Below, piece after piece: positions 40,379 through 63,716 of a stretch of 64,000 nucleotides of DNA (the stretch's first letter is position 1; each line of letters begins with the position of its first letter). Both the position numbers and the translations under genes were made by a program. This DNA comes from Candidatus Saganbacteria bacterium (GTDB lineage: Bacteria; Margulisbacteria; WOR-1; XYC2-FULL-46-14; WPAF01), in contig JACRPM010000010.1 in assembly GCA_016223205.1 (NCBI GenBank), positions 26,441-90,440 of the forward strand, given 5' to 3'. The notes beneath the pieces are model-generated. The model saw nothing but the letters and a program-made list of their open reading frames with translations. It was not told the origin of the DNA and did no database searches.

Positions 40379-40725
40379 TTCTTGATCCTTTGCATAAGAT
40401 CCGCGGGATCGAAGGGCTTGGCCACGTAATCGTTCATGCCCACCCCTTCACTGCGTTTGTGATTGGCCTCATCCTTAAGGACGGTCACCGCGATCACCGG
40501 GATATTGTTCCCGTCTTTCCTGATCTTCCGGCAAAATTCAAATCCATCCATACCGGGCAGCATCAAGTCCAGCAGGATCAGATCGGGCTTCTCGTGGGTG
40601 AGTTTGGTTAAGCCCTGCTCCGCGTCCGGGGCGGATATGGCCTGGTAACCATGCGCTTCGACCAGATCTTCGAGCAAGGTTACTATCTCCGGAGCATCAT
40701 CAATGATCAGGACTTTCTTTTTCAT
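40363..40725 (-). CDS. Single-domain response regulator (CheY-like receiver)
   Basis: KVLIIDDAPE...DLILLDLMLPGMDGFEF...K. 120 aa. Confidence 0.85.
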   Translation of the reverse strand: MKKKVLIIDDAPEIVTLLEDLVEAHGYQAISAPDAEQGLTKLTHEKPDLILLDLMLPGMDGFEFCRKIRKDGNNIPVIAVTVLKDEANHKRSEGVGMNDYVAKPFDPADLMQRIKKWISQ

Positions 40726-42191
40726 GTTTTCTTTTCCCCCTCAACTACATTATACCCTTCACCGGCGGTCTCGCCGATCACGTTCAGGTCGTGGCGGATG
40801 GCGTCGGTGATCACCCAATCGCAGACCTTAAGTATCATGCGCGGCACACCCTGGCTCATCTTATAAATATTCTCGACCGATTCCGGGGTGAACGGCTTAA
40901 GGCCGGTTCCTCCCGAGTTCTCGATCCTCTTTTGCATCATCTCTTCGGTCTCCTTAACGGAGAGATGCTCCAAGGTCACTTCCAAAATAATGCGGTCGTA
41001 AAATGGAGCGCTCACGCACTTGATCTTGTCCGAGGTCTCCAGTAATCCTGCCAGCACAAAATTTACCCCATTTAGGTCGCCCAGGGTGCGGAGCGGCCGC
41101 TCGAATTCGGCCGAGAACTCATGGGCTTCGTCGAGAAACAATAGGATGTTCTTCTGGGTGGTGCTGGCCAGGGATTCCAGATCGTAGATGGTGAACCGGC
41201 GGTCCTTGGGCTTTTTCAATTTGAGCGATGCGGCCAAGAATTCCAGCAAGTCGTCGAAATTATCGGTGGGGCGGGGGATATAGATAGTATGATAATCGTC
41301 TTTGAGCTTGTCGGCCAGCCACTTGAGCAGGGTGGTCTTGCCTACGCCCTTATTGCCGCAAACCAGGACATGTCCGCTTTTAAGGCAGATCTTCTCAAGG
41401 ATATTCTGCACCTGGGTCTGGTAACCGGTAAAAAGATTGGGTAGGATATCCAGGGTAAAGGGATTGCGCTTCCAGCCGAACTTGGCGTACCACTTGCGCT
41501 GGGCCGCGGTGACCCCGGTCCAGGGCTTGAGCCGCGCGCCGCACTTGGCGCAAAATTCGGCCGCTCCGGGATTGGACCACTTGCATTCGGTGCAGATCTG
41601 CAGTTTTTTCTTTTCCAGATAATCCCGGATATTGGTGTAAGTTATGCGGATAAGCAGAAGAAGGGTCAGGACCGATACCACTCCCATCCACAAGGATATT
41701 TGCTGGATCAGATTTGCGGTAACGGCGGTTGCGGCGGGTGGTTTCTGCGGCCTAAAAAGCGGCGCCCTGGGCTCCTCTTTTTGGGGTTCTTCCTTTTTGG
41801 GCTTGGGCAGGGTAGGAGGCAGAACCTGTCTTAAGCTGGGGAAGGCGGGTTTTTCCTGTACTTTGGGTGGAGGCGGGGGAGGAGCGGCCGGTCCCATCTC
41901 CTTTTTGATCTCATTTTGCAGTTCCATGGCCCGGGTGTGGTTGGGATCGAGCTTCAGCGCCTCGCCCAGGTCCTTAAGGGCGCCTTCGTTATCGCCCAGG
42001 AAGTATTTATTTACCGCGCGGTCGTAGTGGTCGTCTGCGCTTTGGGCGTATCCGGGAGCTTGAAAGCTAATCATCAAAAAACAAACAACAAAAAACAAAC
42101 AAATACCAATATCCATTATCCAATATTTAAATTGAGATTTGGAATTTTGAAATTGTTTGTTATTTGTCATTTGTAATTTATTATTTTTCAT
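40722..42191 (-). CDS. Membrane-anchored TPR / Pro-rich linker / TM / zinc-ribbon / AAA+ ATPase (ExeA/GspA-like)
   Basis: N-terminal TM helix plus TPR (ALKDLGEALKLDPNHTRAMEL). PPPPPPP linker. Second TM helix. CTECK...CAKCG zinc ribbon. Walker A CGNKGVGKTTLLKW and Walker B LLFLDEAHE. Confidence 0.6.
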   Translation of the reverse strand: MKNNKLQMTNNKQFQNSKSQFKYWIMDIGICLFFVVCFLMISFQAPGYAQSADDHYDRAVNKYFLGDNEGALKDLGEALKLDPNHTRAMELQNEIKKEMGPAAPPPPPPKVQEKPAFPSLRQVLPPTLPKPKKEEPQKEEPRAPLFRPQKPPAATAVTANLIQQISLWMGVVSVLTLLLLIRITYTNIRDYLEKKKLQICTECKWSNPGAAEFCAKCGARLKPWTGVTAAQRKWYAKFGWKRNPFTLDILPNLFTGYQTQVQNILEKICLKSGHVLVCGNKGVGKTTLLKWLADKLKDDYHTIYIPRPTDNFDDLLEFLAASLKLKKPKDRRFTIYDLESLASTTQKNILLFLDEAHEFSAEFERPLRTLGDLNGVNFVLAGLLETSDKIKCVSAPFYDRIILEVTLEHLSVKETEEMMQKRIENSGGTGLKPFTPESVENIYKMSQGVPRMILKVCDWVITDAIRHDLNVIGETAGEGYNVVEGEKKT

Positions 42192-43645
42192 TACTTCTTC
42201 TCCAATTTCATGATCAATTGCAGTTTTTTCTGCAGGGCCTGGGCCTGTTTGTTTTTGGGATCCTTGGAGAGCGAGGCATCCACCTGCTCCAGGGCTTCCT
42301 TGTACTTGCCGGTCACCACCAGCTTCAGGGCTTCGCCCAAAAAGCTGCGGGCCTGCTCCTGGCTCTGCTCGATAAGCTGGCTCTCCATTTTGGTCTGGGC
42401 CTCGCTTTGGAGCCGCAGGGCCTCACGGTTGGTGGGCTCGATCCTCAAGGCCTTGCTGAATTCCGCCAGGGCCTCCAAATACTTGCCCTGGGATAAAAAT
42501 CCCTTGCCGGAAGACATTATATCATTGATATCGCGTTTGATCTCAACCGCCAGTTCTGCGAAGACCTTCTCAAAGGCCTCTCTTTCGAGCTCGGCCTGGG
42601 CTTTTTTCAGGAGTATCAGGCCTTCTTCGTTCTTGGGGTCGAGGGTGTTAACCTTTTCAAATCTTATAACCGCATCGGAATATTTTTTCTTATCAAGATA
42701 GGCCTTGCCCAGCGCCAGGTTATCCAAGATGAGCTTCTTGGACTTATCTTCGGCGCCGAAAAGCAGGCTGATGCTCACCTGGTGCGCGGCTCCCAGATCG
42801 GCGTGGCCCAGGTAAGCGTAGTCGAAGGCGAAGAGATTGGCATACAGGCCCAGCCCGGCGCGCAAAGTCCCGCCCGCCGAACCCACTCTTATGGCCAAGA
42901 AATTGCGGATCAAATATTCGGCCCCCAAATTGATCCGCAGGCCTTCGGGGAAAGACACCAGATCGGAATTAAGATTGATATTTTCATCGAAAAGCCGGGT
43001 GGCGAAGGCCGCCCCCAGGCGGTAAGAAGCGGGGAGAGGCGTGTTTTCGGTGACGAATTTTAAGGGGGAGCCCAGATTAAGCGCCGAAACCCCCAGGCAA
43101 AACTGGGAATTGACGCGGTAAGCCAAGCCGCCGTCCAGGGCGAAGGTGGAAGCGGAGCTCCCTTCCAATTTTTCCGAGATCGATTTTACCCCCAAACCGA
43201 ACGAGAGGTTGGGGGTTATCCTTCTGCCCAGGGAAAGATTGATACTGCTGTGAGCGGTGTTAAAGGTGGAGGTTACCGCTCCGGTATTATCGTATCCTTG
43301 TATATCTCCTGAAGATAAGCCCGAATAGCCGATCCCCAGCACCCCGAAATTAACCGGGTACGCGGCTCCCACGATCATCTGGCTGGCGCCGACGAAGTGG
43401 CTGTTGTACAGGCTCAAGACCTCGGGGAAATTAAGCTGGGCCAGGCCCGCCGGGTTATAATACATGGCTGAAATGTCATCCGCTTGCGCTACATAGGCCT
43501 CGCCCATCCCCAAAGGTCTGGCTCCACCGCCTAAGCGGAGAAAATCAGCGCCGGAACTGGAACCAACGCCCGCCTCCGATGGAATAACCAATGAACAAGC
43601 TACAAAAGACAAACAAATAATAAATATCAATTTCCAATTTCTCAT
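42191..43645 (-). CDS. FadL/OmpP1-family (PorV-like) outer-membrane beta-barrel with C-terminal TPR repeats
   Basis: Signal peptide. Motif GGGARPLGMGEAYVAQADDISAMYYNPAGLA. C-terminal 150 aa TPR-like (YLDKKKYSDAVIRFEKVNTLDPKNEEG...). Start overlaps the stop of the upstream cargo gene by 4 nt. Confidence 0.55.
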   Translation of the reverse strand: MRNWKLIFIICLSFVACSLVIPSEAGVGSSSGADFLRLGGGARPLGMGEAYVAQADDISAMYYNPAGLAQLNFPEVLSLYNSHFVGASQMIVGAAYPVNFGVLGIGYSGLSSGDIQGYDNTGAVTSTFNTAHSSINLSLGRRITPNLSFGLGVKSISEKLEGSSASTFALDGGLAYRVNSQFCLGVSALNLGSPLKFVTENTPLPASYRLGAAFATRLFDENINLNSDLVSFPEGLRINLGAEYLIRNFLAIRVGSAGGTLRAGLGLYANLFAFDYAYLGHADLGAAHQVSISLLFGAEDKSKKLILDNLALGKAYLDKKKYSDAVIRFEKVNTLDPKNEEGLILLKKAQAELEREAFEKVFAELAVEIKRDINDIMSSGKGFLSQGKYLEALAEFSKALRIEPTNREALRLQSEAQTKMESQLIEQSQEQARSFLGEALKLVVTGKYKEALEQVDASLSKDPKNKQAQALQKKLQLIMKLEKK

Positions 43646-50455: not shown

Positions 50456-50485
50456 GGTTTACTCCTATTGGGGGGATTATAGCAT

Positions 50486-50729: not shown

Positions 50730-51080
50730 ATGTTCATATTTGAGAATTTGGAGGCCTACAAAAAGGCGGTTGCCCTTGCCAAGAAAATATTCTCCGCAAA
50801 TCGAAGGATTAAGGACCGAACCATCAAGGATCAACTTTGCCGCGCAGTCCTTTCTGTCCCGCTAAACATTGCGGAGGGGCAAGGGCGATACCACCAAAAA
50901 GAAAAGCGGCAATTTTACTGCACGGCAAAGGGTTCACTATACGAAAGTCTGCCGCTGGTGCAACTGTGTTTCGAGCTACAGTATTTCGATATGGCACAAT
51001 ACGAAGAAATATATGGTCTGATGAATGAGATAGGGCGAGTTTTGTCGGGGCTTATAAGATCAGTGAAGGGGGAGGAGTGA
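50730..51080 (+). CDS. Four-helix-bundle protein (23S rRNA intervening-sequence protein family, TIGR02436; Avd-like)
   Basis: MFIFENLEAYKKAVALAKKIF...LCRAVLSVPLNIAEGQGRYHQKEKRQFYCTAKGSLYESLPLVQLCFELQYF matches the 4HB / IVS-protein pattern. GGAGGTG ribosome-binding site 7 nt upstream. Track ORF starts at 50694. Confidence 0.75.
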   Translation: MFIFENLEAYKKAVALAKKIFSANRRIKDRTIKDQLCRAVLSVPLNIAEGQGRYHQKEKRQFYCTAKGSLYESLPLVQLCFELQYFDMAQYEEIYGLMNEIGRVLSGLIRSVKGEE

Positions 51081-51144
51081 ATAGCGAAGGTTAGAACACA
51101 GAACTTAGAACACGGAACTTGGAGCATAGGGCGGAATCGCTATT
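51081..51144. repeat. Element B: short hairpin repeat with tandem AGAACAC(A/G)GAACTT units, between the convergent 4HB and FHA genes
   Basis: AATAGCGAAGG...GAATCGCTATT stem enclosing TTAGAACACAGAACTTAGAACACGGAACTTGGAGCATAGGG. Probable bidirectional terminator. Shares submotifs with elements A and C. Confidence 0.5.
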
Positions 51145-52248
51145 TTAATCTTCTTTAGGTGTGGCCTCGGGCAAAGCCGGCGCGCTCATGGCCTCAATTA
51201 ATTGATTTCTGACCGCCTGTGCTTTTAAACTATCAGCCTTCTCCAAAAGCCCCAGAAAACGATCTCTTTCCGCGGGATTTCTGACTGCTAATAATCTGGC
51301 AATTTCTCGCACATCAAATTGAAATAATATATGGCAAATACTATCATCTAATTTTCTGTGAGCCGCTTTGTTTGAAGATCGGTAGCTTGCCAATGAGCCA
51401 GCGGCACCGCCAATAAAACCACCAATACAAACTAAAGTCGAAATGGGAAAAAGTAAGCCCATTATTCCCCAGCCTACTCCAGAACCTAATAGAGTTTGAA
51501 TAAACGTATTTCTCCAGTCGCGCCGGATTTTATCTTTTCTTTCTAGATAAATAGTGAGAAGTTCATCTGTCGTTCTTGCTTCCGCAAAATCAGTCCCTTC
51601 GATCAGAGATGGATCGATTCGCTTGGTAACTGTCAACCCTTGTTCGGCAATAAAGGTTTGAACTATCGCCAATTGTTCCTGTCGAGCTTGAGCTACTTCC
51701 GGCGTGACCTCTTCAATGGGCGGACGGGTGGCTAAAAGCAGACGGACATCTTCACCGATTTCTTTGGCGGTTTCTAATTGTATCTCCAGATATCTGCCGT
51801 TTTTACCAGGAATAGCACCGCTTAAGTGCAGAACCAACCGTGCGCCCTCGGGTATTAAGCTGCCTTCGAGATTCTTGTCGGTTGGAACAGTTATGGGCCG
51901 GCCGTTCGGCTTAAGGAGGGTAATCGGCTTGTCGGAATAATTTAGGATGCGGAAACTTTTACCCTGCTGATGAATGATCTGCGCATGGTTTAAGTCAATC
52001 TGCGGATCATTGATCCGGATTTCACAGCTTCGATCGCGACCTATGGAGATCGAACCGCCTACGGGAAGATAAATCTTCTGGCCGCCGATATGCAGGGTGG
52101 CTGCGATATTCGCGTTCATCTGGGGATTTAAAAACTGGTTCCGAACCCTTACCCGCACCTCCCCGCCGCCCCTGGCCTCCGCGTTGAATCCAATGTACCT
52201 TTCTCTGACCGCTGTTCTGACCGCTCTAACCGCTCTAACTATTCCCAT
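51145..52248 (-). CDS. FHA-domain protein with C-terminal glycine-zipper transmembrane region
   Basis: FHA core SISIGRDRSCEIRINDPQIDLNHAQIIHQQGKSFRILNYSD...NGRPI. C-terminal LLGSGVGWGIMGLLFPISTLVCIGGFIGGAAGSLASY. Real start is probably MNANIAATL (52119). The 5' extension is a 9-mer tandem repeat (GTTAGAGCG)x2. Confidence 0.55.
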   Translation of the reverse strand: MGIVRAVRAVRTAVRERYIGFNAEARGGGEVRVRVRNQFLNPQMNANIAATLHIGGQKIYLPVGGSISIGRDRSCEIRINDPQIDLNHAQIIHQQGKSFRILNYSDKPITLLKPNGRPITVPTDKNLEGSLIPEGARLVLHLSGAIPGKNGRYLEIQLETAKEIGEDVRLLLATRPPIEEVTPEVAQARQEQLAIVQTFIAEQGLTVTKRIDPSLIEGTDFAEARTTDELLTIYLERKDKIRRDWRNTFIQTLLGSGVGWGIMGLLFPISTLVCIGGFIGGAAGSLASYRSSNKAAHRKLDDSICHILFQFDVREIARLLAVRNPAERDRFLGLLEKADSLKAQAVRNQLIEAMSAPALPEATPKED

Positions 52249-52340
52249 TGATGTCCCTCCTAGAGGATCTGCTTTCCTATGTATATATCGTTAAAAACGA
52301 GGCCGGATTTCACTTATTAAGGGATATTTTTAGAATTGAT

Positions 52341-52499
52341 TAAATAGGGAGGAGTAAATTGGGAAGGTTAGAACACAGAACTTAGAGCACCGAACTTAGA
52401 ACACAGGGCGGAATCCCTCCCTGTGCTCCGTGCTCCGTGTTCTGTGTTCCGTGCTCCATGTTCTTTCCGTCCCTCTCCACTATTCCCTATTTACTATCC
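52341..52499. repeat. Element C: ~160-nt imperfect palindromic repeat (long hairpin) with tandem GAACTTAGAACAC units
   Basis: Left arm GGAAGGTTAGAACACAGAACTTAGAGCACCGAACTTAGAACACAGGG. Right arm CCCTGTGCTCCGTGCTCCGTGTTCTGTGTTCCGTGCTCCATGTTCTTTCC. Termini TAAATAGGGAGGAG / CCCTCTCCACTATTCCCTATTTACTATCC are homologous to the element A termini. Confidence 0.6.
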
Positions 52500-53954
52500 G
52501 TTAAAACGATATTTTAATATCTCAGTATCGCTCTCATCGACCTCGATCAGGTGATAAGGAAAGAAAACGTGGGTGTCGGATTCGCGGATGGCCAGTTCCT
52601 GGAGCTTGACCTCCAGGTTGATGTCCGCGGGGATCACCTTTAGCAGGTTTTTGGATCCACCGCTGTTCATGGGCTGGGCCCAGTTCTCGATTATCCGGCC
52701 GATGGTCTCGCGCTTTCCCGCCAGCTCCTCGCCGAATTCGGTCAAGATCGCGAGCAGCGGCTTGCCCAGGCGGGCCTCTTTTAAAAGATTGATCGAGCCC
52801 AGCATGCCCAGGTGCTGATTCAATAATTTTCCTTCTTCCTTTTCCACCGAGCCGATATTTAAAAGCAGGACCTGGCACTCGGAATATTCCCGGCCCAATC
52901 CTTCCACAAAGCGCGAATCCCCCGTGATGCCGATGTGGAGCCGTTCACCGTTCTTCAAGACCAGGTTGGTATCGAGCACCAAGCCCACGGAAGATTCCTG
53001 ATTGGTCCAGCGCTCGGTGTGGTAGGCGGGCTTCACATGGATATGAAAGCCGTATTTTTCCATCAGGGACTGGTTCTCGATCTCCGCCACCCGGTTGCCG
53101 GGCACCAGCAGTTTGAAATTTATCTCCTTGTTGCCGAACAGGTCGGTGGCGGAAAGCAGGCCGTGGAATTTCAAAAGCACTCCGGACGAGCCGAAAATAT
53201 CCAGGACTTTGCTCTTTTTTTCCTGGTTGTGATCGTTGTATTTGGCCAAAAGCGAAAGTATCCCCTCCACCGATTCGGTGTGGTCGTCGTGGTCGTGGGT
53301 GATGATGATGGCGTCGATATCGGCGATGCCCAGCCCCAGCCCGCGAAAGATATCGAAAAAATCATAGCCGGGATCGATGGCGATGCCCTTTACTTCCCCT
53401 CTCCCGTTCCGCAAGGTTAAAAAGTACCCTCCGCCCTGGGAGAGCCCGTGGGAGAATAGGGGAGAGGCGGAGTTCCACTTGTGGATGGTGCGCAGGACGT
53501 TGGCTCCCATCTTGTATTCCACCTGGCGGGGAGCGTTCAGCTCCCTGATCAGTTGGGCCTGGTTCTTTTTTATGATTTCCCGCGTGGGGAAAATGGTCTC
53601 GTCCATGTAGTTAATAGCACGGGTGGCGGAGGAGCCGAGGTTCTTCATATGCAGGTCGTACTGGCGCGCCAGCCGGAAATCCTCGTAAGCCTCGCGGAAG
53701 CGCCCCTGCAGAAAGCGACTGATGCCGCGATTGTAGGCCGGCAGCCCCACATTGCCATGCTTTTTCTGCATCAGGCGGAAAAGCGCGTCGAATACCGCCT
53801 CGGCTTCTTTATAAAGATTTCGGTCTATTAAAGCGTGGCCGAGCTGTTCCCACTTCGCCGGATCGTTCTCATTGAGGGATTTGAGAAGTTCTGGAAAGCT
53901 CTTAAAGCCGCCAAGTAAGTCCTGCAATTTGTGTCCTATTAAAATTTCCGCCAA
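52494..53954 (-). CDS. MBL-fold metallo-hydrolase with N-terminal TPR-like region
   Basis: Metal-binding IIITHDHDDHTESVEG (HxHxDH variant). 486 aa. Confidence 0.7.
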   Translation of the reverse strand: MAEILIGHKLQDLLGGFKSFPELLKSLNENDPAKWEQLGHALIDRNLYKEAEAVFDALFRLMQKKHGNVGLPAYNRGISRFLQGRFREAYEDFRLARQYDLHMKNLGSSATRAINYMDETIFPTREIIKKNQAQLIRELNAPRQVEYKMGANVLRTIHKWNSASPLFSHGLSQGGGYFLTLRNGRGEVKGIAIDPGYDFFDIFRGLGLGIADIDAIIITHDHDDHTESVEGILSLLAKYNDHNQEKKSKVLDIFGSSGVLLKFHGLLSATDLFGNKEINFKLLVPGNRVAEIENQSLMEKYGFHIHVKPAYHTERWTNQESSVGLVLDTNLVLKNGERLHIGITGDSRFVEGLGREYSECQVLLLNIGSVEKEEGKLLNQHLGMLGSINLLKEARLGKPLLAILTEFGEELAGKRETIGRIIENWAQPMNSGGSKNLLKVIPADINLEVKLQELAIRESDTHVFFPYHLIEVDESDTEILKYRFNG

Positions 53955-55182
53955 GGTAGGCGTAGTCCAAGATTACCTGGTTGATCATGATCGAGGCGCC
54001 GGCGGTCTTACTGCCGTCGTTTAATCCGGCCCGCAAGGCCAGGCCGGGAAAGGGACGGAATTCAGCGCCATAATGGTTGGTTTGCGGTTTGCCCGACTGG
54101 CGAAAAATATTCTGGATATCCGCGGCCACGGTGAGCTCATCGATAGGGGTGACAGCCAGGCCGCAGTTGATCGACATGCGATAGGTGAGGTTGGTCCCGT
54201 TCTCAAAGTGAATATCGGTGGTCAGTATCTCCTTGGCCACCGCCCCAAAGGCCAGCTGGTCCACCGGCCGCAAAAGCAAGCCCAGGTCGATCCCCGCCCC
54301 ATAACCTTTCAGGTTCACGCTGGGGATCTTGATGTCGTAGAAATTGAGGTTGCTGCCCAGCGCCACCCGCTCCTCATAGCCGGTGGCCAGCGTGAGGGTG
54401 TAATAATTGGTTTTCTGGTCCTGCACGGAATTATTGTCCGTCAACCAGGATAATCCTCCCGCGAACTGTGCCTTGCCCTGGGGGGAATATTCTTCCTCCG
54501 CCGGGCGTTCATCCCAATAGGTAGGGCGGTGATAATCGCGGTAGTAATAGGGATACGCCCAAGGACCCCAGTAGACGTTTACCGAGGTATGGCGGGCCAC
54601 TTCCTTAGCGGTCGAGGCGGTCGAAGAAAGCGCTTGTTCGGTGACCTGCGCGGCCTTTTCTTTTATCTTTTGACCCACCGCCACGGTCTTTTCGGTGCCG
54701 CCTTCCTTTACCTTTTCCGCCGGCGACTCCGTTTGGTCCACCTTTTCAGTGGATCTTCCCCAGTTTTTCTTGAGCACTCCCTGGTCCGAAAGATATTTAG
54801 CGCCTTCGAGCGCCACCAGGGAAACGACGCCGATGCCGGCGACCCAAAGAAAAGGATTAAGCTCGGTCTCGAAGTTCATCTTGAGCGCTAAAAGGTTGTC
54901 GCCGAGGCAGGCGTTGCGGTTTGAAATTACAGTGGTTCCGGTGATATCCACGCCGGGATTGCGCGCTAATCCCGCCGGGTTCCACCAGGCGGCGTTGGCA
55001 TCGTCGGAGATGGCCACAAAAGCCCCGCCCATGCCCAGCGGTCGCGCCCCGAAATTTGCGAATGATTGAGAGGCAAGAGTAAGCACCAACAAGCCGGCGA
55101 ATAAATTCGCGGTTAAATTTAGGCGAGAATTTATTCTCGGCTTCACAAGTGTTATTCTAGCAAAGCCGCCTTGCAGAAGCAA
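53902..55182 (-). CDS. FadL/OmpP1-family (PorV-like) outer-membrane beta-barrel, third paralogue
   Basis: Signal peptide, then FGARPLGMGGAFVAISDDANAAWWNPAGLA. 426 aa. C-terminal ...LTWRL. The 5' end (signal n-region) is encoded by a family-3 palindromic repeat. Confidence 0.55.
   Translation of the reverse strand: MLLQGGFARITLVKPRINSRLNLTANLFAGLLVLTLASQSFANFGARPLGMGGAFVAISDDANAAWWNPAGLARNPGVDITGTTVISNRNACLGDNLLALKMNFETELNPFLWVAGIGVVSLVALEGAKYLSDQGVLKKNWGRSTEKVDQTESPAEKVKEGGTEKTVAVGQKIKEKAAQVTEQALSSTASTAKEVARHTSVNVYWGPWAYPYYYRDYHRPTYWDERPAEEEYSPQGKAQFAGGLSWLTDNNSVQDQKTNYYTLTLATGYEERVALGSNLNFYDIKIPSVNLKGYGAGIDLGLLLRPVDQLAFGAVAKEILTTDIHFENGTNLTYRMSINCGLAVTPIDELTVAADIQNIFRQSGKPQTNHYGAEFRPFPGLALRAGLNDGSKTAGASIMINQVILDYAYLGGNFNRTQIAGLTWRL
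55081..55134. repeat. Family-3 palindromic mini-repeat (AAGCCG-GCGAATAAATTCGC-GGTTAAATTTAG-GCGAGAATTTATTCTCGGC-TT)
   Basis: Near-identical to 2633-2666 and 61311-61344. Forms two adjacent hairpins bounded by AAGCCG/CGGCTT. Confidence 0.55.
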
Positions 55183-55815: not shown

Positions 55816-57252
55816 ATGAAAATCGAACGACATAAAATACCCGAGAGACCGGTTAACGAGCGCATCAAGGACTTTGAGGAAGTGGCGCTCGGCTACACCA
55901 TTGAGACCGCCATCGAAGAGGCCCAGCGCTGCATCCAATGCCAAAATCCCAAGTGTGTGGGAGGCTGTCCGGTGGAGATCGACATTCCCGCCTTTCTAAA
56001 GCTCATCGCCGCCGGCGATATGGAAGGGGCCATTCGTAAGATCAAAGAAAAGAATTCCCTGCCTGCCGTTTGTGGAAGGGTCTGTCCGCAAGAGGACCAG
56101 TGCGAAAAGGTGTGCATACTGGGAATTAAAGGGAAACCGGTGGCGGTAGGAGCATTGGAGAGGTTTGTGGCGGACCAGGCCTCACCCCTTTCTTCTCCTT
56201 CGCCTACGGCTTCGGAGAATTCATTCCCCTCTCCATCGAAGATGGAGAGGGGTGTCCCGATGAATCGGGACGGGGTGAGGATTGCCGTCGTCGGCTCCGG
56301 TCCCGCGGGGCTTACTTGTGCGGGAGATTTAGCCAAACTGGGTTATCAGGTCACGCTGTTTGAGTCGCTTTCGACCCCCGGCGGGGTGTTGGTCTACGGC
56401 ATTCCTGAATTCCGCCTGCCCAAGAAGATCGTGGAGATCGAGATCGATTATGTCAGATCGTTGGGGGTAGAACTGATCACCGATGTTTTGATCGGCAAGA
56501 CCATAACTATCGAGGAGCTGTTCGCCCAAGGGTTCAAGGCCGTCTTTATCGGTTCGGGCGCCGGTCTGCCGCAATTTTTGGGGGTCCCGGGAGAAAATCT
56601 TCTGGGAGTTTATTCCGCCAATGAGTTCTTATCACGGGTAAATTTAATGAAGGCCTATAAATTCCCCGAATATTTAACGCCGGTCAAGGTGGGAAAGAAG
56701 GTGGCGGTGCTGGGGGCGGGGAACGTGGCCATGGACGCGGCGCGGGTCTCGCTTCGCCTGGGAGCAAAAGAAGTTACCATCGTCTATCGCCGCAGCCGTA
56801 AGGAAATGCCTGCCCGGGCGGAGGAGATCGAGAGGGCGGAGGAGGAGGGGATCGTTTTCAAACTGCTCACCGCGCCCACCGAAATACGCGGGGATAAGAA
56901 CGGCTGGGTGCAGGAAATGGAATGCCTGGAGATGGAGCTGGGCGAGCCCGACGCATCGGGCCGCAGAAGGCCGGTCCCCAAGGAAGGATCCGAATTCGTA
57001 TTTCCGGTCGATACCATCATCTCCGCCATCGGCAACAAGCCCAATCCTTTGATCCCCCGCGAAACCTTAGAACTAAAAGTGGAAAAGTGGGGTGGGGTGA
57101 TAATCAATGAAAGCACCCGCATGACCTCTATTCCCGGGGTTTTCGCGGGAGGGGACATCGTGAGGGGAGCGGCCACGGTAATTTCCGCCATGGGGGACGG
57201 CAAAAAGGCTGCCGAGCAGATCAACGCGTATTTATCCAAGCTCGGAACCTGA
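55816..57252 (+). CDS. GltD-family NAD(P)H-dependent oxidoreductase (glutamate synthase small-subunit-like / NfnB/SudA-like)
   Basis: N-terminal Fe-S Cys clusters CIQCQNPKCVGGCP and CGRVCPQEDQCEKVC. FAD motif IAVVGSGPAGLTCAGDLAKLG. NAD(P) motif VAVLGAGNVAMDAAR. Carries an in-frame family-1 repeat in the inter-domain linker. Confidence 0.8.
   Translation: MKIERHKIPERPVNERIKDFEEVALGYTIETAIEEAQRCIQCQNPKCVGGCPVEIDIPAFLKLIAAGDMEGAIRKIKEKNSLPAVCGRVCPQEDQCEKVCILGIKGKPVAVGALERFVADQASPLSSPSPTASENSFPSPSKMERGVPMNRDGVRIAVVGSGPAGLTCAGDLAKLGYQVTLFESLSTPGGVLVYGIPEFRLPKKIVEIEIDYVRSLGVELITDVLIGKTITIEELFAQGFKAVFIGSGAGLPQFLGVPGENLLGVYSANEFLSRVNLMKAYKFPEYLTPVKVGKKVAVLGAGNVAMDAARVSLRLGAKEVTIVYRRSRKEMPARAEEIERAEEEGIVFKLLTAPTEIRGDKNGWVQEMECLEMELGEPDASGRRRPVPKEGSEFVFPVDTIISAIGNKPNPLIPRETLELKVEKWGGVIINESTRMTSIPGVFAGGDIVRGAATVISAMGDGKKAAEQINAYLSKLGT
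56180..56280. repeat. Family-1 composite palindromic element inserted in-frame in the gltD-like CDS (CCTCACCCC ... CCCCTCTCCA-TCGAAGA-TGGAGAGGGG ... GTCCCGAT-GAA-TCGGGAC ... GGGGTGAGG)
   Basis: About 101 nt bounded by the same 9-nt inverted termini as the 26663-26798 copy. It encodes the S/P-rich linker SPLSSPSPTASENSFPSPSKMERGVPMNRDGV, which is absent from typical GltD homologues. Confidence 0.6.
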
Positions 57253-57269
57253 TTGTTTAACCGCGACGT

Positions 57270-58544
57270 TCAGTCGCTGGTTACTAAGATTATCGAATTA
57301 TAGGTTATATCAACCAATTTTCTAAGTTCTGCTTCCGAAATGCTCAAAGGCGGCATAAGCACAATGACATTTCCCAGCGGTCGAAGGATCGCGCCCAATT
57401 TGCGGGCTCTCAATATCACCGGTTGCGCGGGAATATTTAGTTCGATCCCCACCATAAATCCCAATTGCCTGATCTCTTTTACCTGCTTTAATTTGGTGAA
57501 GGGCTTTAACGATTGAGACAGCAATTTTATTTTGGGCTGAAGCTTCTCGATCGTTCTTTCTTTCCTGAAGATCTCCAGATTAGCGAGGGCAGCGGCGCAG
57601 GCCAAAGGATTTCCGGTATAAGTATGGCCGTGGTAAAAGGTGTGATCAAGGAAAGCCCGGTAGATCTTTTCAGATGTTAAGGTAGCAGCCAGGGGCAAGT
57701 ATCCCCCGGTAATTCCTTTGGCGACACACATCAGGTCGGGCGTGATGCCAACGTGCTCGCAGGCGAACATTTTACCGGTTCGTCCAAAGCCGGCGGCCAC
57801 TTCATCCACGATCAAAAGCACATCATATTTTGAGCATAATCTGCGGACCGCTTTGAGATATCCCGGCGGATAAAACAGCATCCCGGCGGCGGCCTGGATA
57901 AGCGGTTCTACGATCATCGCGGCGATCTCTGGATGGCGGGTTTTCAGGATGTTTTCGAGCGCCTGGATATTTCCCGACGGCACTTTCAGCGATTTAAAAA
58001 GCAGGGGTTTATAGGTTTTATGGAAAAGGTCTATGCCCCCGACCGACACCGAGCCGATGGTATCGCCGTGATAGGCGTTGGTCAGGGTGAGGAATTTGGT
58101 TTTACCCCCTCTCTTTCTCCCCCTTAATAAGGGGGAGACGGAGGAGGGGGTGATCTGCCAATAATGGAAAGCCATCTTTAAGGCGATCTCCACCGCCTCC
58201 GAGCCCGAGTCGGAATAAAAGACACGAGTTAAACCCCGGGGAGCGAGCTTTACCAGTTTTTCCGCCAATTCTATCGAAGGGACATTGCCCAGGCCTAAAA
58301 GTGTAGAGTGGGCGATCTTTTTTAATTGGTTTTCGATGGCCCGGTCGAGCTCGGCCTTACGGTGGCCGTGGACCGTGACCCAGAGGGAAGAAACCCCGTC
58401 CAGGTATTTTCTGCCTTTGGTATCAAAGAGATAACTGCCTTTCCCCCTTTCGATGATGAGAGGTTCGCTCTTTTCCCAACCCTTCTGGTCGGTAAAAGGA
58501 TGCCAGAGGTATTGCCGGTCTTTTTTATCTAGCGCTTTTGCCAT
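57270..58544 (-). CDS. bioA: Adenosylmethionine-8-amino-7-oxononanoate aminotransferase
   Basis: 424 aa. N-terminal DRQYLWHPFTDQ. PLP-aminotransferase class III fold. Contains an in-frame family-2 repeat. Confidence 0.9.
   Translation of the reverse strand: MAKALDKKDRQYLWHPFTDQKGWEKSEPLIIERGKGSYLFDTKGRKYLDGVSSLWVTVHGHRKAELDRAIENQLKKIAHSTLLGLGNVPSIELAEKLVKLAPRGLTRVFYSDSGSEAVEIALKMAFHYWQITPSSVSPLLRGRKRGGKTKFLTLTNAYHGDTIGSVSVGGIDLFHKTYKPLLFKSLKVPSGNIQALENILKTRHPEIAAMIVEPLIQAAAGMLFYPPGYLKAVRRLCSKYDVLLIVDEVAAGFGRTGKMFACEHVGITPDLMCVAKGITGGYLPLAATLTSEKIYRAFLDHTFYHGHTYTGNPLACAAALANLEIFRKERTIEKLQPKIKLLSQSLKPFTKLKQVKEIRQLGFMVGIELNIPAQPVILRARKLGAILRPLGNVIVLMPPLSISEAELRKLVDITYNSIILVTSD
58104..58152. repeat. 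Family-2 palindromic element (ACCCCCTCTCTTTCTCCCCCTT-AATA-AGGGGGAGA...GAGGGGGTG), in-frame in bioA, preceded by GGGTGAGG
   Basis: It encodes QITPSSVSPLLRGRKRGGKTK, which is about 12 aa longer than the corresponding E. coli BioA segment YWQARGEARQRF. Near-identical copy at 60275-60343. Confidence 0.6.
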
Positions 58545-59167
58545 TTGAGCTTAGCCATGATCGGGATACCCGTTAGTTCTTCTATCACTTCTGTATTAGT
58601 CCTTTCCGAGAGATCTTTACGTTTAAACCCGTTAAGGACTATTCCCGCGATCCGTATCTTCCTTTTTCTTAAGGCCTCCACCGTAAGCAATGTATGGTTG
58701 ATGGTGCCCAGCCCCGCCCGCGCCACCACAAGGGCGGGCAGGCCCAGATCTTTTATCAGGTCCGCCACCAGATAATCGCGTTTTATGGGTACCATAACCC
58801 CGCCGATCCCCTCCACCAGCAGGCAATCGTGTTTATTTGATAATTTATGAAAAGCGGAAAATATTGGGGATAAAGAAAGCTTTTTCTTTTGCAGTTGGGA
58901 AGCGGGGTAGGGGGCGAGGGGCAAGGAAAGATGGATAGGATTTATCAAGTTGATAGGGTCTTTCAATTTGAGTTTTCTTTTTAGATAAAGAGCGTCATTC
59001 TCTTTCTGCGGGCCGCAGGAGATGGGTTTCATTACGCCAATATCCAGCCCCTCTTTTTTCAAGAGTTCCGCCAGCCAGAGCGTGACGTAGGTCTTGCCTA
59101 CGCCGGTATCAGTTCCCGTAATGAAGAAGCCAGGCAAGCTATATCCTCCTTGGTGTGCTGGGCGCAA
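58529..59167 (-). CDS. bioD: Dethiobiotin synthetase
   Basis: GFFITGTDTGVGKTYVTLWL P-loop. 212 aa. Overlaps bioF by 70 nt and bioA by 16 nt. Confidence 0.85.
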   Translation of the reverse strand: MRPAHQGGYSLPGFFITGTDTGVGKTYVTLWLAELLKKEGLDIGVMKPISCGPQKENDALYLKRKLKLKDPINLINPIHLSLPLAPYPASQLQKKKLSLSPIFSAFHKLSNKHDCLLVEGIGGVMVPIKRDYLVADLIKDLGLPALVVARAGLGTINHTLLTVEALRKRKIRIAGIVLNGFKRKDLSERTNTEVIEELTGIPIMAKLKWQKR

Positions 59168-60273
59168 ATTGTGAGCCGCAGACGGCTTTGACCCGGGGGC
59201 ACGGTCGGCGGGCGGATGGCCGAAAGCAAAATGCCGCGGGTGAAAAGTTGATTGGAGATTTCTAATGTTTTTTCGGGTGGGCCTATGATGATAGGAATGA
59301 TGGGGGATAAGGAACCTGGGGCTGAACGCCCCGGTTCCTTGGAGCCGCGACGTTCAGTCGCAGGCGAAGAATAGTAATCAATATTTTTTCTCAATTTTTC
59401 AAGAAGGGATAAATCCTTCTCGATCAACTCCAGCGCGGCCAGGGCAGCAGCGCAGGAGGCAGGCGGCAGGGCGGTGGTATAAATGAACGAACGCGATTTA
59501 TTGCGCAGGTAATCGATCAAATTCTTTGGACCTGCCACAAAGCCGCCCAGGGAGCCGATGGCCTTGGATAAAGTTCCCATCACGATGTCGGTTCGGCCTT
59601 CGCAATTAAAATGTTCTTCCAGACCTCTTCCTGTCTTCCCGAGCACTCCCGTAGAATGGGCCTCGTCTATCATCACTAAGGCCTTATGATTTTTTGCCAG
59701 CATTAATATATCGAGCAGCGGCGCCAGGTCCCCGTCCATGCTGAAGACCGAATCGGTTACGATAAGCCGCTTGCCGAAGTTTTGCGACTTGCCCAGGAGC
59801 TTTTCCAAAGCATTCATATCCCGATGGGGGAAGACCTGCAGTTTGGCGCGGGATAATTTGCAGGCATCGATTATCGAGGCATGATCCAGGCGGTCGATGA
59901 TCACGGTATCTTTTTCGTCTACCAATGCGGAAACAACGCCCAGGTTAGCCATAAAGCCGGTAGGGAAAACGATCGCCGCTTCTCTTTTTTTGAACTCGGC
60001 TATCTTCCGCTCGAGCTTTTCGTGAAGAACAAGGTTGCCGGAAATTAAACGAGACGCTCCCGCTCCAGTGCCGTACTTTTCTACTGCTTCTTTGGCGGCA
60101 GCCACGACTGCCGGATGATTCGCCAAGCCCAGATAATTGTTAGAGCAGAAATTCAGATAGAGTTTTTCGTCGATGGTTACCGTTCGGCCATCGGTCTTCT
60201 CAATGGTCTTAAGCGAGCGATAAAGGCCGGAATCTTTGATATCCGACAATTCTTTTTCGATGAAGTCCAGCAT
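59098..60273 (-). CDS. bioF: 8-amino-7-oxononanoate synthase
   Basis: 391 aa. PLP-dependent acyl-CoA transferase fold. C-terminal ...AIRPPTVPPGQSRLRLTI. Contains a low-complexity in-frame insertion encoded by two hairpin repeats. Confidence 0.9.
   Translation of the reverse strand: MLDFIEKELSDIKDSGLYRSLKTIEKTDGRTVTIDEKLYLNFCSNNYLGLANHPAVVAAAKEAVEKYGTGAGASRLISGNLVLHEKLERKIAEFKKREAAIVFPTGFMANLGVVSALVDEKDTVIIDRLDHASIIDACKLSRAKLQVFPHRDMNALEKLLGKSQNFGKRLIVTDSVFSMDGDLAPLLDILMLAKNHKALVMIDEAHSTGVLGKTGRGLEEHFNCEGRTDIVMGTLSKAIGSLGGFVAGPKNLIDYLRNKSRSFIYTTALPPASCAAALAALELIEKDLSLLEKLRKNIDYYSSPATERRGSKEPGRSAPGSLSPIIPIIIGPPEKTLEISNQLFTRGILLSAIRPPTVPPGQSRLRLTICAQHTKEDIACLASSLRELIPA
59311..59361. repeat. Two GC-clamped hairpin repeats in-frame in bioF (GGAACCTGGGGC-TGAACG-CCCCGGTTCC and GCCGCGACGTTCAGTCGC)
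   Basis: The second hairpin is 17/17 identical to 57261-57277 (gltD/bioA convergent spacer). The first resembles the GGAACC...GGTTCC hairpin at 46976-47003. They encode SSPATERRGSKEPGRSAPGSL in place of the roughly 14-aa KQRLEEAGF... segment of E. coli BioF. Confidence 0.5.
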
Positions 60274-61278
60274 TTACCCCCTCTCTTTCTCCCCCTTGGC
60301 AAGGGGGAGAGGTCCCGAGCTTTGTCGAGGGACAGAGGGGGTGTCTACTTCTAACCCCAAATCCGCTAACATCCGCAAATCTTTCTCCGGCGCCTGGCCC
60401 TTGGTCGTCAAATAATCCCCGATCAAAGTCACATTCGCTCCTGCCAAAAACATCAAGGGCTGGAGCGTGCCCAACGATAATTCCCTCCCCCCAAAGACGC
60501 CGATATCCTTGTCCTGCAATATCAGTCGATAAACCGCCACCAGACGGAGTACTTCCAAAGGTGGCATAGGCCGATAATTTTTTGCGGCGGGAGTGCCGGG
60601 GATGGGATTTAAGATATTTATCGGTACGGAATCCACCTTGAGTTCCGCCAGAGTGAAGGCCAGCTCCACTCTCTGCTCCGGTGTTTCCCCTAGGCCGAAA
60701 ATGCCGCCCGAACAAACCTCTAAACCCTCTGCTTTTGCCGCTTTGATGGTGGCCAATCTTTCCTGGTAAGTATGCGTGGTGCAAACCTGGTTGAAAAAGC
60801 TTTCCGCGGTCTCGAGATTATGGTGTAATCGCTTCAGCCCGGCGGCCTTGAGTTTTTTGATCTGCTCTTTGGAAAGCGTACCGAGCGAAACACAACGATC
60901 CAGCTTAGTTTGGCTTTTAATGGCGGAAAGGACCCCGGCAATGTCCTCAATTTCCTGGTCGGTTTTGACCGATTTTCCGGCGGTCACTATACTAAAGCAG
61001 GTGGCGTGGAAATTCTTTTCGGAATCGGTAGCGGATTTAAACATCTCATCCTTGGAGAGCAGGGGGTAGATGGGTGTTTTGGTTGAAAAATGGCCGGATT
61101 GGGCGCAGAACGAACAGTTCTCGCTGCAGCGGCCCGATTTGGCGTTAACGATCGCGCAGAGCTTTACTTTATTACCTTTGAATTTCCGGCGGGTCTCGTC
61201 GGCTTTAGCCAAAAGAGAGAAGGTCTCTTCGTCGGAAGAATTAATAAGATTTATTGCTTCTTTGAAAGATAAGGTCAT
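60274..61278 (-). CDS. bioB: Biotin synthase (radical SAM)
   Basis: CSENCSFC Fe-S/SAM motif. 334 aa. The C-terminal tail ...PLPLAKGEKERG is encoded by a family-2 palindromic element. Confidence 0.9.
   Translation of the reverse strand: MTLSFKEAINLINSSDEETFSLLAKADETRRKFKGNKVKLCAIVNAKSGRCSENCSFCAQSGHFSTKTPIYPLLSKDEMFKSATDSEKNFHATCFSIVTAGKSVKTDQEIEDIAGVLSAIKSQTKLDRCVSLGTLSKEQIKKLKAAGLKRLHHNLETAESFFNQVCTTHTYQERLATIKAAKAEGLEVCSGGIFGLGETPEQRVELAFTLAELKVDSVPINILNPIPGTPAAKNYRPMPPLEVLRLVAVYRLILQDKDIGVFGGRELSLGTLQPLMFLAGANVTLIGDYLTTKGQAPEKDLRMLADLGLEVDTPSVPRQSSGPLPLAKGEKERG
60275..60343. repeat. Family-2 palindromic element at the bioB/bioF junction (ACCCCCTCTCTTTCTCCCCCTT-GGC-AAGGGGGAGAG + GTCCC...GGGAC + CAGAGGGGGTG)
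   Basis: 24 of 26 nt identical to the bioA copy. It supplies the last 10 codons and the stop of bioB. The bioF ATG follows the TAA directly. Confidence 0.6.
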
Positions 61279-61291
61279 GATAACTCTAGAA

Positions 61292-61344
61292 ACCGGCCCC
61301 GGTAAACCGGGGCGGTTAAATTTCGGCGAGAATTCATTCTCGCC
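61292..61344. repeat. Hairpin ACCGGCCCCGG-TAAA-CCGGGGCGGT plus family-3 repeat GGTTAAATTTCGGCGAGAATTCATTCTCGCC in the GH94-bioB spacer (terminator-like on the minus strand)
   Basis: Perfect 9-bp stem GGCGAGAAT/ATTCTCGCC immediately after the GH94 stop. Shares GGTTAAATTT-GGCGAGAAT with copies at 2647-2666 and 55101-55131. Confidence 0.5.
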
Positions 61345-63716
61345 TATCCTAACACCGCTTCTACGTGATGATCTTGGTCATCTTTGAAAAGCGGCACCCG
61401 GTTGCCGGAGATCTGGTTGCCGTCCACGATCAAGTGCTTGACCCCTTTATTCACGCCTTTAGGATTTCTTACGGTTATGAAGTAAGTGCAACCCCGGAAG
61501 ACCCTTTTAACTTCAAACCCCTTCCACTTTTTGGGGATGCAGGGATCGATGACGAGACCGTGATAATCCGGACGGATCCCCAGGATATACTGGGAGATCG
61601 CGACCATCGCCCAGGAGGCAGTGCCGGTAAGCCAGCTGTTGCGGCCCAGCCCGAACTGGGGATGTTCCTTGCCTAAGATATTTTGGCAGTAGACGTAGGG
61701 CTCTACTTCGTAAACCTCGGCGATGTCGTTCTTTAAAGAAGGCAGGATCTGGCGGTAATATTGGTAAGCCAGGTCCCCTTCTCCCAGCATGGTTTGGGCG
61801 ATCATCTGCCAGGGATTGGTCTGCAAAAATATCCCACCGTTCTCTTTGGCGCCGGGAGGGTAGGTGGTGGTGCCGCCGATCTTCCAATCAAAGTGATCGT
61901 AAGCCGGCCAGATCAAGACCAGCCCGTATTTGGTGTTGAGATATTTATGAGCCGAAGCCAGCGCGGTCTTGGCCCTGTGGTTGGTCGCAAAACCCGCCAT
62001 CACCGCCCAGCTTTGCATCAAAAGATAGATCTTGGCTTTTTCGTTGAGGTGGCTGCCGACTTTCTTTCCCTCATCCGTATAGGCCCGCAGATACCACTTG
62101 CCGTCCCAGCCGGCCTTGGAGTTTACGATCTTTGAAAAATGCTTATGAAGGTCCGCGTATTTTTTGGCCAGCTCTTCTTTGTTCAGGATGCGGCAAAGGG
62201 CGATCATCTCGAGCAGGGCCACGCCCAAAAGCATGGTGCTCCACACCGACTCCGCCTGGCCCTTGCCGGTGTCCAGATTTAAGGTGTCGTCCCAATCCGC
62301 CCAGCCCGCCAGGGTTAAGCCGTGTTTGCCCACATGGGAGACGGAGAAATCGACGGCTGCTTTTAAATGTTCGAAGACCGGGAACTTGCCGTCCTCTTTG
62401 AAGGTCACCTTTTCATTAAGCAGTTCGTAATCCCCGGTCTCCTTAAGATAAGCGCAGACCGCCAGGATGATCCACAGGTGATCGTCCGAATACCATTTAG
62501 CGGCTTTTTTGGTGCCCTCCGCGGCATCTCCGGATTCCACCTCTCCGGTCAGCGGATAAAATTGATGGGCGGCGTGGCCGTCGCGGTACTGGATCTCCAG
62601 TAATTTGAACAGAGTATGGCGGGCTTCATCCGGGATGGTGTGCATCACGCCCAGGGTGTCTTGCGCGGTATCGCGGAAACCCATACCCCGGTTGACTCCC
62701 AGCTGGTAGAGGGAGACAAAACGCGACCAGTTGAAGGTGCATTTGCATTGGTACTGGTTCCAGATATTCACCATCACGTTGGTCTCGTCGTCGGGGGTTT
62801 TCGCTTCGAATTTGGAAAGGTAGCCGCCCATTTTTTTCTTAAGCTCCGCCAGGGCTACCTGGCAATTCTCGCTTTTGCGGTATTTTTTGATAAGGGGCAG
62901 GGCCCGCTCGGGCTTATCGGTCGTGCCCAAAATAAAGACGACCTCTTTTTCTTCGTGGGGTTTAAGGTCCACTTCCACGCATAATCCTCCCACGCCGTTG
63001 CCCCGCAAAGCCTCCGAGTTGGAGCATTTTCCCGTTTCCACGCAGATCGGGTTGGCCAGGGAGCGGTAGGGGCCGACAAATTTTTCGCGGTCGGTGTCGA
63101 ATCCCGCGATCTTCCCATTGGTCGCAAAATAGGTATAACCCTGGGTCTTCATAAAAGAGGTCCAGAAGATGGTCTGCTGTTTGAATACCGCCTGGTCGAT
63201 CTGCTGGCACCAGTCCACATTGGTCTGGTCCTTCACCGCTTCATAAAAACTGAATTCGGCGTAGCTGAAAAGCTTCAGCCGCCGGGGCTTGCCGTTCATA
63301 TTTTTTACCTTGACCACCCAAACTTCCAGGGCCTGCTGGTTATCCGGCACAAAGTAGGTGACGGAAGATCTGATCTTCTCGTATTCCGAAGTGATGATCG
63401 TATAGCCCAATCCATGCCGGCACTCGTAAGCTTTTAGCTGGTTGTAAGTAGGGGCCCAGGTGGGCGACCAGAACTTTCCGCTCAATTCATCCCGGATATA
63501 AACATAGCGGCCGGGCTGGTCGGTCGGGACGGAATTGTAGCGGTAGCGCAGGATGCGCTTGTTCTTGGGATCGCGGTCGAAAGAATAACCCCCTCCCGTC
63601 TGCGAGACGAATCCCCCGTAATTGCCGGCGCCGATATAGTTGATCCAGGGGGTGGGGGTGTCGGGGCGGTTGATGATATACTCTCGATTTTCGGTGTCAA
63701 ACGATCCGTAACGCAT
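61344..63716 (-). CDS. Glycoside hydrolase family 94 phosphorylase (cellobiose/chitobiose phosphorylase-like)
   Basis: N-terminal MRYGSFDTENREYIINRPDTPTPWINYIGAGNYGGFVSQTGGGYSFDRDPKNKRILRYRYNSVP is closely similar to GH94 cellobiose phosphorylase N-termini. 790 aa. Confidence 0.8.
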   Translation of the reverse strand: MRYGSFDTENREYIINRPDTPTPWINYIGAGNYGGFVSQTGGGYSFDRDPKNKRILRYRYNSVPTDQPGRYVYIRDELSGKFWSPTWAPTYNQLKAYECRHGLGYTIITSEYEKIRSSVTYFVPDNQQALEVWVVKVKNMNGKPRRLKLFSYAEFSFYEAVKDQTNVDWCQQIDQAVFKQQTIFWTSFMKTQGYTYFATNGKIAGFDTDREKFVGPYRSLANPICVETGKCSNSEALRGNGVGGLCVEVDLKPHEEKEVVFILGTTDKPERALPLIKKYRKSENCQVALAELKKKMGGYLSKFEAKTPDDETNVMVNIWNQYQCKCTFNWSRFVSLYQLGVNRGMGFRDTAQDTLGVMHTIPDEARHTLFKLLEIQYRDGHAAHQFYPLTGEVESGDAAEGTKKAAKWYSDDHLWIILAVCAYLKETGDYELLNEKVTFKEDGKFPVFEHLKAAVDFSVSHVGKHGLTLAGWADWDDTLNLDTGKGQAESVWSTMLLGVALLEMIALCRILNKEELAKKYADLHKHFSKIVNSKAGWDGKWYLRAYTDEGKKVGSHLNEKAKIYLLMQSWAVMAGFATNHRAKTALASAHKYLNTKYGLVLIWPAYDHFDWKIGGTTTYPPGAKENGGIFLQTNPWQMIAQTMLGEGDLAYQYYRQILPSLKNDIAEVYEVEPYVYCQNILGKEHPQFGLGRNSWLTGTASWAMVAISQYILGIRPDYHGLVIDPCIPKKWKGFEVKRVFRGCTYFITVRNPKGVNKGVKHLIVDGNQISGNRVPLFKDDQDHHVEAVLG

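Follow-up and report, generated by a model that had tools for sequence, protein, structure and literature searches.

The biotin operon bioB-bioF-bioD-bioA of a Candidatus Saganbacteria genome lies within a 64,000-nt stretch of DNA (64 kb; hereafter, the window), and short palindromic repeats lie within and around it, some of them translated as part of the biosynthetic enzymes. All four bio genes are on the minus strand, with a GH94-type gene upstream and a convergent gene for an NADPH-dependent glutamate synthase (gltD) downstream.

63716..61344, minus strand: GH94-type gene, upstream of bioB
61278..60274, minus strand: bioB, biotin synthase, 334 aa (TIGR00433, 380 bits against a cut-off of 225)
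60273..59098, minus strand: bioF, 8-amino-7-oxononanoate synthase, 391 aa (TIGR00858, 475 bits against 426)
59137..58529, minus strand: bioD, dethiobiotin synthase, 202 aa, free of repeats (TIGR00347, 180 bits against 83)
58544..57270, minus strand: bioA, adenosylmethionine-8-amino-7-oxononanoate transaminase, 424 aa (TIGR00508, 516 bits against 405)
55816..57252, plus strand: gltD, downstream of and convergent with bioA

Gene identity was judged by NCBIfam equivalog cut-offs, which bioB, bioF, bioD, and bioA all exceed, and these scores bear out the gene order and identities proposed in a first-pass annotation of the sequence. The bioD start is that of the gene call on L001. BioF matches NCBI protein P0121, a Candidatus Saganbacteria deposit, at 100% identity, and the closest homologues of BioA are likewise named Candidatus Saganbacteria or Margulisiibacteriota.

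The same annotation had described hairpin repeats in three of the four bio genes and at both ends of the operon. We find this arrangement as described, with both flanking spacers filled too. Two repeat families recur. Members of the P family carry outer inverted repeats, ACCCCCTC…GAGGGGGT, around one or two inner hairpins and are modular, measuring 47 to 67 nt, while R-family units conform to the consensus (GG)AACCGCGrCGTTCAGyCGCrGGTT(CC). Because the repeats proved too divergent for a census of exact 12-mers in the window, degenerate patterns were used in its place. The core patterns of P and R each returned five matches in the window, where 0.01 and 0.10, respectively, were expected, and R-family units number six (0.1 expected). 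Predicted RNA folding energies of the elements lie between -12.7 and -44.3 kcal/mol (z-scores between -3.4 and -6.3). The elements in and around the operon, in the direction of its transcription and continuing into gltD, are as follows.

61323-61346: GGCGAGAAT..ATTCTCGCC hairpin in the GH94-bioB spacer, overlapping the GH94 stop codon
61294-61315: GC-rich hairpin (GCCCCGG...CCGGGGC) in the GH94-bioB spacer
60276-60342: P element in its 67-nt form, forming the tail of bioB; encodes BioB residues 313-334 plus the T of the TAA stop; fold -44.3 kcal/mol
59311-59364: inverted doublet of R hairpins in bioF (59311-59338 plus 59341-59364), 54 nt or 18 codons; encodes residues 304-321; fold -36.7 kcal/mol
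58104-58151: P element with a nested hairpin, in frame in bioA, 48 nt or 16 codons; encodes residues 132-147 (TPSSVSPLLRGRKRGG); fold -36.7 kcal/mol
57259-57282: R hairpin at the convergent gltD/bioA junction, holding the last four bioA codons and the stop (57270-57272)
56226-56271: two adjacent hairpins (CCCCTCTCC...GGAGAGGGG and GTCCC...GGGAC), in frame in gltD, in the part that encodes the linker between domains

The bioA element, placed in frame at 58104-58152 by the first-pass annotation, measures 58104-58151; compared with empty sites, the net gain is 33 nt, 15 nt having been replaced there. The element at the end of bioB is, as had been claimed, a near-copy of it that abuts the bioF ATG: the first 22 nt and the AAGGGGGAGA arm are identical between the two, and the TAA stop of bioB directly adjoins the bioF start codon. 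Its contribution to bioB had been put at 10 codons, a figure that is too low because the bioB copy holds a second inner hairpin (GTCCCGAG...CGAGGGAC); it supplies 22. In bioF, two in-frame hairpins had been noted at 59311-59361, and these prove to span 59311-59364, the halves 59315-59338 and 59341-59364 being 79% complementary. The reported 17/17 identity between 59345-59361 in bioF and 57261-57277 at the convergent junction is exact. The hairpin at that junction is present but does not lie in the spacer alone, as had been thought, since the end of bioA is inside it. The GH94-bioB spacer had been credited with a hairpin plus a repeat and does hold two elements, both of them hairpins.

To place these elements in an evolutionary context, three syntenic relatives were aligned to the window across the whole operon: L004 (88% nucleotide identity), L002 (85%), and L005 (80%). 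The state of each site is as follows.

bioA internal element: +33 nt in the window; present in L004; absent from L002 and L005
bioB-tail element: +72 nt in the window; +63 nt in L004; absent from L002 and L005
bioF site: +54-nt doublet in the window and unique to it; empty in L004 and L005; a different 21-nt insert in L002
bioA 3' end: +44-nt extension in the window; none in L004, L002, or L005
gltD linker: a palindromic variant of its own in each of the window, L004, and L002; a different, non-palindromic sequence in L005
First GH94-bioB hairpin (61323-61346): present in the window, L004, and L005; absent from L002
Second GH94-bioB hairpin (61294-61315): in the window only; another hairpin at the same position in L005

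L002 and L005, which lack the bioB-tail element, have overlapping bioB and bioF genes, the overlap being 11 nt long in L002 and 8 nt long in L005. Where bioA ends, all three relatives have a 21-nt convergent overlap between bioA and gltD, with an R-like palindrome already inside it. Comparison of Bio protein lengths with orthologues, a check proposed in the first-pass annotation, found BioA, BioF, and BioB to be longer at the element sites. BioA relatives at 83 to 89% identity have 405 to 411 aa, compared with 424 aa in the window, and BioB relatives have 313 to 315 aa, compared with 334 aa. Relative to solved orthologues, BioA has ~11 extra loop residues, the corresponding stretch of BioF is both lengthened and replaced, and BioB carries a tail of ~20 residues, the alignment to solved BioB stopping at residue 314. 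The elements are genuine insertions whose presence varies between relatives in agreement with the phylogeny.

The relatives hold further peculiarities at these genes. In L004 (7230-7480), the bioB start codon lies within the loop of a GGCGAGAATGAATTCTCGCC hairpin, the counterpart of 61323-61346 (MNSRLNFKEAV...). The L004 bioB gene also has a run of six C's, compared with five in the window, which shifts the frame after ~80 codons and is either a sequencing error or the mark of a pseudogene. Two more distant relatives differ in other ways. The BioB call on L218 (1649-3004) is 451 aa long and includes ~130 aa at its N terminus that the window's BioB lacks, which may be an over-called start; between bioF and bioD, L219 carries an extra open reading frame (ORF) of 162 aa (1225-1713).

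Might the repeats be artefacts of assembly or binning, for example, chimeric joins at repeats, as the first-pass annotation had cautioned? An independent Logan assembly reproduces window positions 56223-60305 (4,083 nt) with 0 mismatches, covering the bioA, bioF, and spacer elements, and L004, which comes from a different sample and organism, has both the bioA and the bioB element in identical positions. Furthermore, all insertions keep the reading frames open and have lengths that are multiples of three. The Logan contig does end inside repeat copies at both ends, which shows that assemblers struggle at these sequences. Given a second assembly without mismatches and a filled relative from another sample, we discard this explanation as extremely improbable.

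The enzymes that carry the inserts appear intact. Ratios of nonsynonymous to synonymous substitution (dN/dS, or omega) of the bio genes against L002 are 0.11 to 0.12, while those of neighboring genes are 0.03 to 0.12, most of them 0.03 to 0.09; the bio genes are under purifying selection. Relaxed selection on the operon, or its pseudogenization, is ruled out by these omega values and by four proteins above their equivalog cut-offs. AlphaFold models are confident overall, with a mean predicted local distance difference test score (pLDDT) of 89.8 for BioF and 80.7 for BioA. Only one BioF segment, residues 304-321, has a pLDDT below 50, and it corresponds precisely to the 18 inserted codons; the low-confidence segment of BioA, residues 135-145, falls within the element-encoded 132-147. 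Since low-pLDDT segments and element-encoded residues coincide, the BioA and BioF inserts are predicted to be disordered loops between well-folded parts. As far as sequence tells, the bio genes still function with their inserts, and we infer that the insertions are neutral.

Copies of the same kinds of element occur elsewhere in the window, both within another gene and between genes.

3829-3856: R hairpin in frame in pheT (TIGR00472, 589 bits)
4473-4624: P-type hairpin array downstream of pheT (4473-4499, 4576-4600, and 4601-4624)
26686-26777: two intergenic P-type hairpins (26686-26712 and 26749-26777)
46978-47052: intergenic inverted R doublet (46978-47001 and 47028-47052)
55099-55141: second occurrence of the composite hairpin element of GGCGAGAAT type, inserting 30 nt compared with L002

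The first R unit of bioF (R1) and the pheT copy differ by a compensatory pair of stem changes. The pheT hairpin encodes EPRRSAAGS and sits in a loop that is variable across solved structures of PheT; pheT is essential.

The P family extends well beyond this genome. A search of metagenome contigs, requiring an exact match to a pattern with 31 specified bases, returned 90 matches that reduce to 47 distinct sites. At least 19 of the 47 lie inside long ORFs (open for ≥80 codons on both sides), and another 14 are at ends of long ORFs, 7 of them 3' and 7 on the 5' side. The sites use all frames and both orientations, in sizes of 47, 56 to 58, and 64 to 67 nt, and no shared flank motif was found across them. 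The ACCCCCTC...GAGGGGGT termini are seen in the window, in its relatives, and at the 47 metagenomic sites. One arm of the P element is all pyrimidine and the other all purine, so neither can encode a stop codon. An origin of the bioA hairpin in place, from the native purine-rich AGGAAAAAGGAAAAAG of the empty site, is unlikely because 22 of 22 nt are shared with the bioB copy and the element matches the 47-site metagenomic family. In a protein of ~1,170 aa, an in-frame P element occupies the same position (757 codons upstream and 402 downstream) in more than 12 metagenome samples, on contigs including L137, L139, L140, L152, L155, and L156; it occurs there in 47-nt and 56-nt variants, so the element varies even at a fixed intragenic site.

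A 21-nt core hairpin, CTCCCCCTTNNNAAGGGGGAG, was found still more widely in reference genomes (L007-L126): the matches listed include Patescibacteria, Planctomycetota, Cyanobacteria, Cellvibrio, Poribacteria, and others, often, among those matches, with several copies per genome. A single hairpin type may have spread horizontally, or similar hairpins may have arisen by convergence. Since matches in so many unrelated phyla make it unspecific to the family, it was dropped as a family marker and not used to assign membership.

Across the clade, the BioF site and the BioA loop are hypervariable, with peptides typical of translated palindromes, and the GltD site, too, holds unrelated palindromes in other lineages. 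Where the underlying DNA was checked, in three relatives, it was palindromic and unrelated in sequence, with folds of -18 to -53 kcal/mol.

Taken together, the multicopy P family, the filled and empty sites, the in-frame inserts, and the copies in pheT and gltD lead us to consider it probable that several families of tiny, non-autonomous palindromic repeats are spreading or have spread in Saganbacteria/Margulisbacteria and that the gene-internal copies are survivors of a filter for tolerance. Such repeats would resemble repetitive extragenic palindromic sequences (REPs), their paired form (REPINs), or MITEs (miniature transposable elements with inverted repeats). We infer both the mobility of the repeats and the action of selection as a filter on their insertion. 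Copies would land widely, and within genes only those that are in frame, free of stops, and at permissive places (surface loops, inter-domain linkers, and gene ends) would survive. The P family would be well suited to passing such a filter, with its stop-free arms and the loop-like peptides, rich in Pro, Ser, Gly, Arg, and Lys, that it encodes. In the biotin operon, the survivors would have given BioA and BioF disordered loops and BioB a 22-residue tail with a new stop, the TAA-ATG junction supplanting the ancestral bioB/bioF overlap, while an R hairpin would have rebuilt the convergent junction of bioA and gltD. The concentration of repeats in the operon would then stem mostly from tolerance of insertion, given permissive loops and purifying selection somewhat weaker than in several neighboring genes.

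Several observations weigh against this explanation. No unit that we inspected bears the GTAG or CGTC end tags of REPs, CGTC occurring only at the R loop/stem boundary; no cognate REP-associated tyrosine transposase (RAYT; an IS200/IS605-like Y1 transposase) was identified, no search for one having been made; and the filled/empty comparisons at bioA, bioB, and bioF revealed no target-site duplication. Depletion of stop codons over all families is modest (88 of 108 frames open, compared with 77 ± 4 expected), and we do not regard strong stop-codon avoidance as a trait of all of them. The census covers 64 kb of this genome, which limits what can be said of density. Targeted insertion could likewise account for the repeated use of precisely the same protein sites. 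Lastly, the elements common to the window and L004 differ at 4 of 106 nt, whereas host genes differ at 13.9% (P = 5e-4), a slower divergence that pure neutrality does not predict. Slow divergence of this kind can come from selection, from gene conversion between copies, from self-correction of palindromes, or from later arrival.

Alternatively, the hairpins may be kept for roles in bio mRNA, the first-pass annotation having proposed them as mRNA stabilizers or attenuators. They could shield the mRNA upstream of them from 3'-to-5' exonucleases, provide processing sites, or adjust translational coupling, and would set the ratio of the four enzymes. At the bioB/bioF junction, a Shine-Dalgarno-like run, GAGGGGG, 4 to 10 nt before the bioF ATG might, for instance, be sequestered by the outer stem of the bioB-tail element and freed only as ribosomes read through bioB. 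Such roles would be in keeping with the very stable folds (-36.7 to -44.3 kcal/mol); with the greater conservation of the elements relative to host genes, including a spacer hairpin (61325-61344) that is identical to its L005 counterpart at 20 of 20 positions although the region is 80% identical; with the position of the bioB element, which takes the place of the ancestral overlap exactly at the bioB/bioF junction; and with that of the convergent-junction hairpin, which lies beside both 3' ends, where REPs typically sit (PMC3733652). However, the same operon runs in close relatives that lack these elements, unrelated genes and spacers house other copies of the families, and the extra conservation could equally come from gene conversion or palindrome self-correction. 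A terminator scan of the minus strand found no U-tract on the mRNA strand at the family hairpins, and terminator-like sites number 9, compared with 9.8 ± 3.5 in shuffles, so we reject their identity as intrinsic terminators. Among the covariance models of Rfam 15, the best match scored 26 bits against gathering scores of 63 to 71 (E ≥ 0.08), which rules out a known structured RNA family. Altogether, we judge it unlikely that the hairpins are kept for such roles.

The first-pass annotation had further suggested that the operon is a hotspot for the elements. There is some clustering: 5 of the 12 repeat loci in the window fall within the 4.1-kb operon (scan-statistic P = 0.036), and 7 of the 12 fall within the 6.25-kb gltD-bio stretch (scan-statistic P = 0.0025), whereas the syntenic flanks (the GH94 gene, of 2.4 kb, and ~8.5 kb of further coding sequence) have only one hairpin-associated indel, at 55099-55141. 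Against a hotspot in the strict sense, pheT, gltD, and metagenomic ORFs have been hit as well. The operon, or particular sites in it, might nonetheless be the true target if an enzyme recognizes hairpins or structures in single-stranded DNA, such that one hairpin succeeds another at fixed positions. Different palindromes do occupy identical positions (the second spacer hairpin in the window and L005; the bioF site in the window and L002); the gltD linker holds distinct palindromic variants in the window, L004, and L002; BioA and BioF loops across the clade carry different palindromes; units are often adjacent or nested; and the clustering over 6.25 kb points the same way. Yet selection for permissive sites predicts an identical pattern, and the empty ancestral bioA, bioB, and bioF sites present no obvious palindrome or shared target motif. 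True targeting of this sort strikes us as quite improbable. A mixed scenario, in which a mechanism specific to hairpins or single-stranded DNA structures inserts or swaps palindromes time after time at fixed sites clade-wide, within essential enzymes too, and the copies are then kept by selection as RNA elements of the operon, for stability or coupling, and for that reason change more slowly than the genes around them, seems to us rather unlikely. The clustering is real but modest, and we think that tolerance explains it better than targeting, since other genes are hit and the same protein sites have been colonized independently in other lineages; with 64 kb of this genome examined, this verdict is provisional.

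How do the repeats compare with systems already described? The RPEs (Rickettsia palindromic elements) of Ogata et al. 2000 are described in PMC10969869 as palindromic selfish repeats of ~100 to 150 bp, often inserted in frame in genes. As far as that account goes, the likeness is close: both are palindromic, often lie in frame in unrelated housekeeping genes, encode peptides compatible with the protein fold, and have many intragenic copies. By the same account, however, RPEs have a family-specific conserved sequence and peptide, while the Saganbacteria elements are 24 to 67 nt long, modular, nested, and of unrelated sequence, occur in a free-living candidate phylum, and are read in all frames and both orientations.

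With REPs and REPINs, the elements share the form of GC-rich imperfect palindromes of 20 to 40 nt, occurring as singlets, inverted doublets, and arrays (PMC3116915 and PMC3733652). The six R units, with their stable folds and a compensatory stem change, are short dispersed palindromes in this sense, and the bioF insert and 46978-47052 are inverted doublets of the REPIN type. Location at convergent gene ends is another likeness, REPs being known to abut both 3' ends of convergent genes, and intragenic copies in "REP-decorated" proteins have been described as well (PMC3733652). The share of intragenic copies is far higher here, however: at least 19 of 47 P sites and 3 of 6 R units, with a fourth R unit overlapping the end of bioA, so that the elements are not mainly extragenic, whereas in Pseudomonas fluorescens SBW25 14 of 1,067 REP 16-mers overlap genes (PMC3116915).

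In-frame insertions that create translational fusions are also known for ERIC elements, Coxiella QMITE1, and Anabaena MITEs (PMC10969869 and PMC5896051). Like MITEs, the P element ends in inverted repeats (ACCCCCTC / GAGGGGGT), has a non-coding origin, and makes translational fusions. It is much smaller, at 47 to 67 nt, and no parent insertion sequence is known for it, no search for one having been made. In Cyanobacteria, the sister phylum, Elhai and colleagues reportedly described in 2008 small dispersed repeats of ~20 to 30 nt with nested hairpins that vary between close relatives. On this likeness, they are probably the closest counterpart that the sister phylum offers. The Saganbacteria elements behave like RPEs and intragenic REPs, and we do not file them in any named family.

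Repeated sequences of other kinds also occur in the window. Relative to L002, there is an insertion of ~2 kb at 50446-52511 that carries a small gene (50733-51079) whose product is a four helix bundle protein (TIGR02436, 87.6 bits) and an ORF (51145..52248) and is bracketed by direct repeats at 50487-50536, 51063-51141, and 52340-52418. Within it, at 50569, lies a hairpin, CCTGCCTGCCGGCAGGCAGG, with an identical 20-mer inside BioF of the relative L217. A giant ORF of 4,008 aa at 6859-18885, built of repeats of ~1.16 kb and ~0.3 kb (families D1-D7), probably encodes a repetitive surface protein. A-rich, low-complexity direct repeats (42069-42138 and 43583-43652) lie at the 5' ends of two adjacent ORFs of similar size, 40722..42191 and 42191..43645.

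Palindromic selfish DNA inserted in frame is already known from Rickettsia and from gene-internal REPs, and the operon described here is an example in a little-studied phylum; its interest lies mainly in the dense remodeling of gene boundaries and the recurrent use of protein sites across the clade. In practice, such repeats break assemblies, inflate protein lengths, and yield odd "PLSP…GEG/RGRKRGG" segments in annotated proteins, and recognizing them would improve the annotation and alignment of proteins from metagenome-assembled genomes. Within one operon, tiny palindromic repeats can be seen remodeling genes without destroying them, providing disordered loops, a new C terminus with its stop, the separation of overlapping genes, and, in a relative, a start codon.

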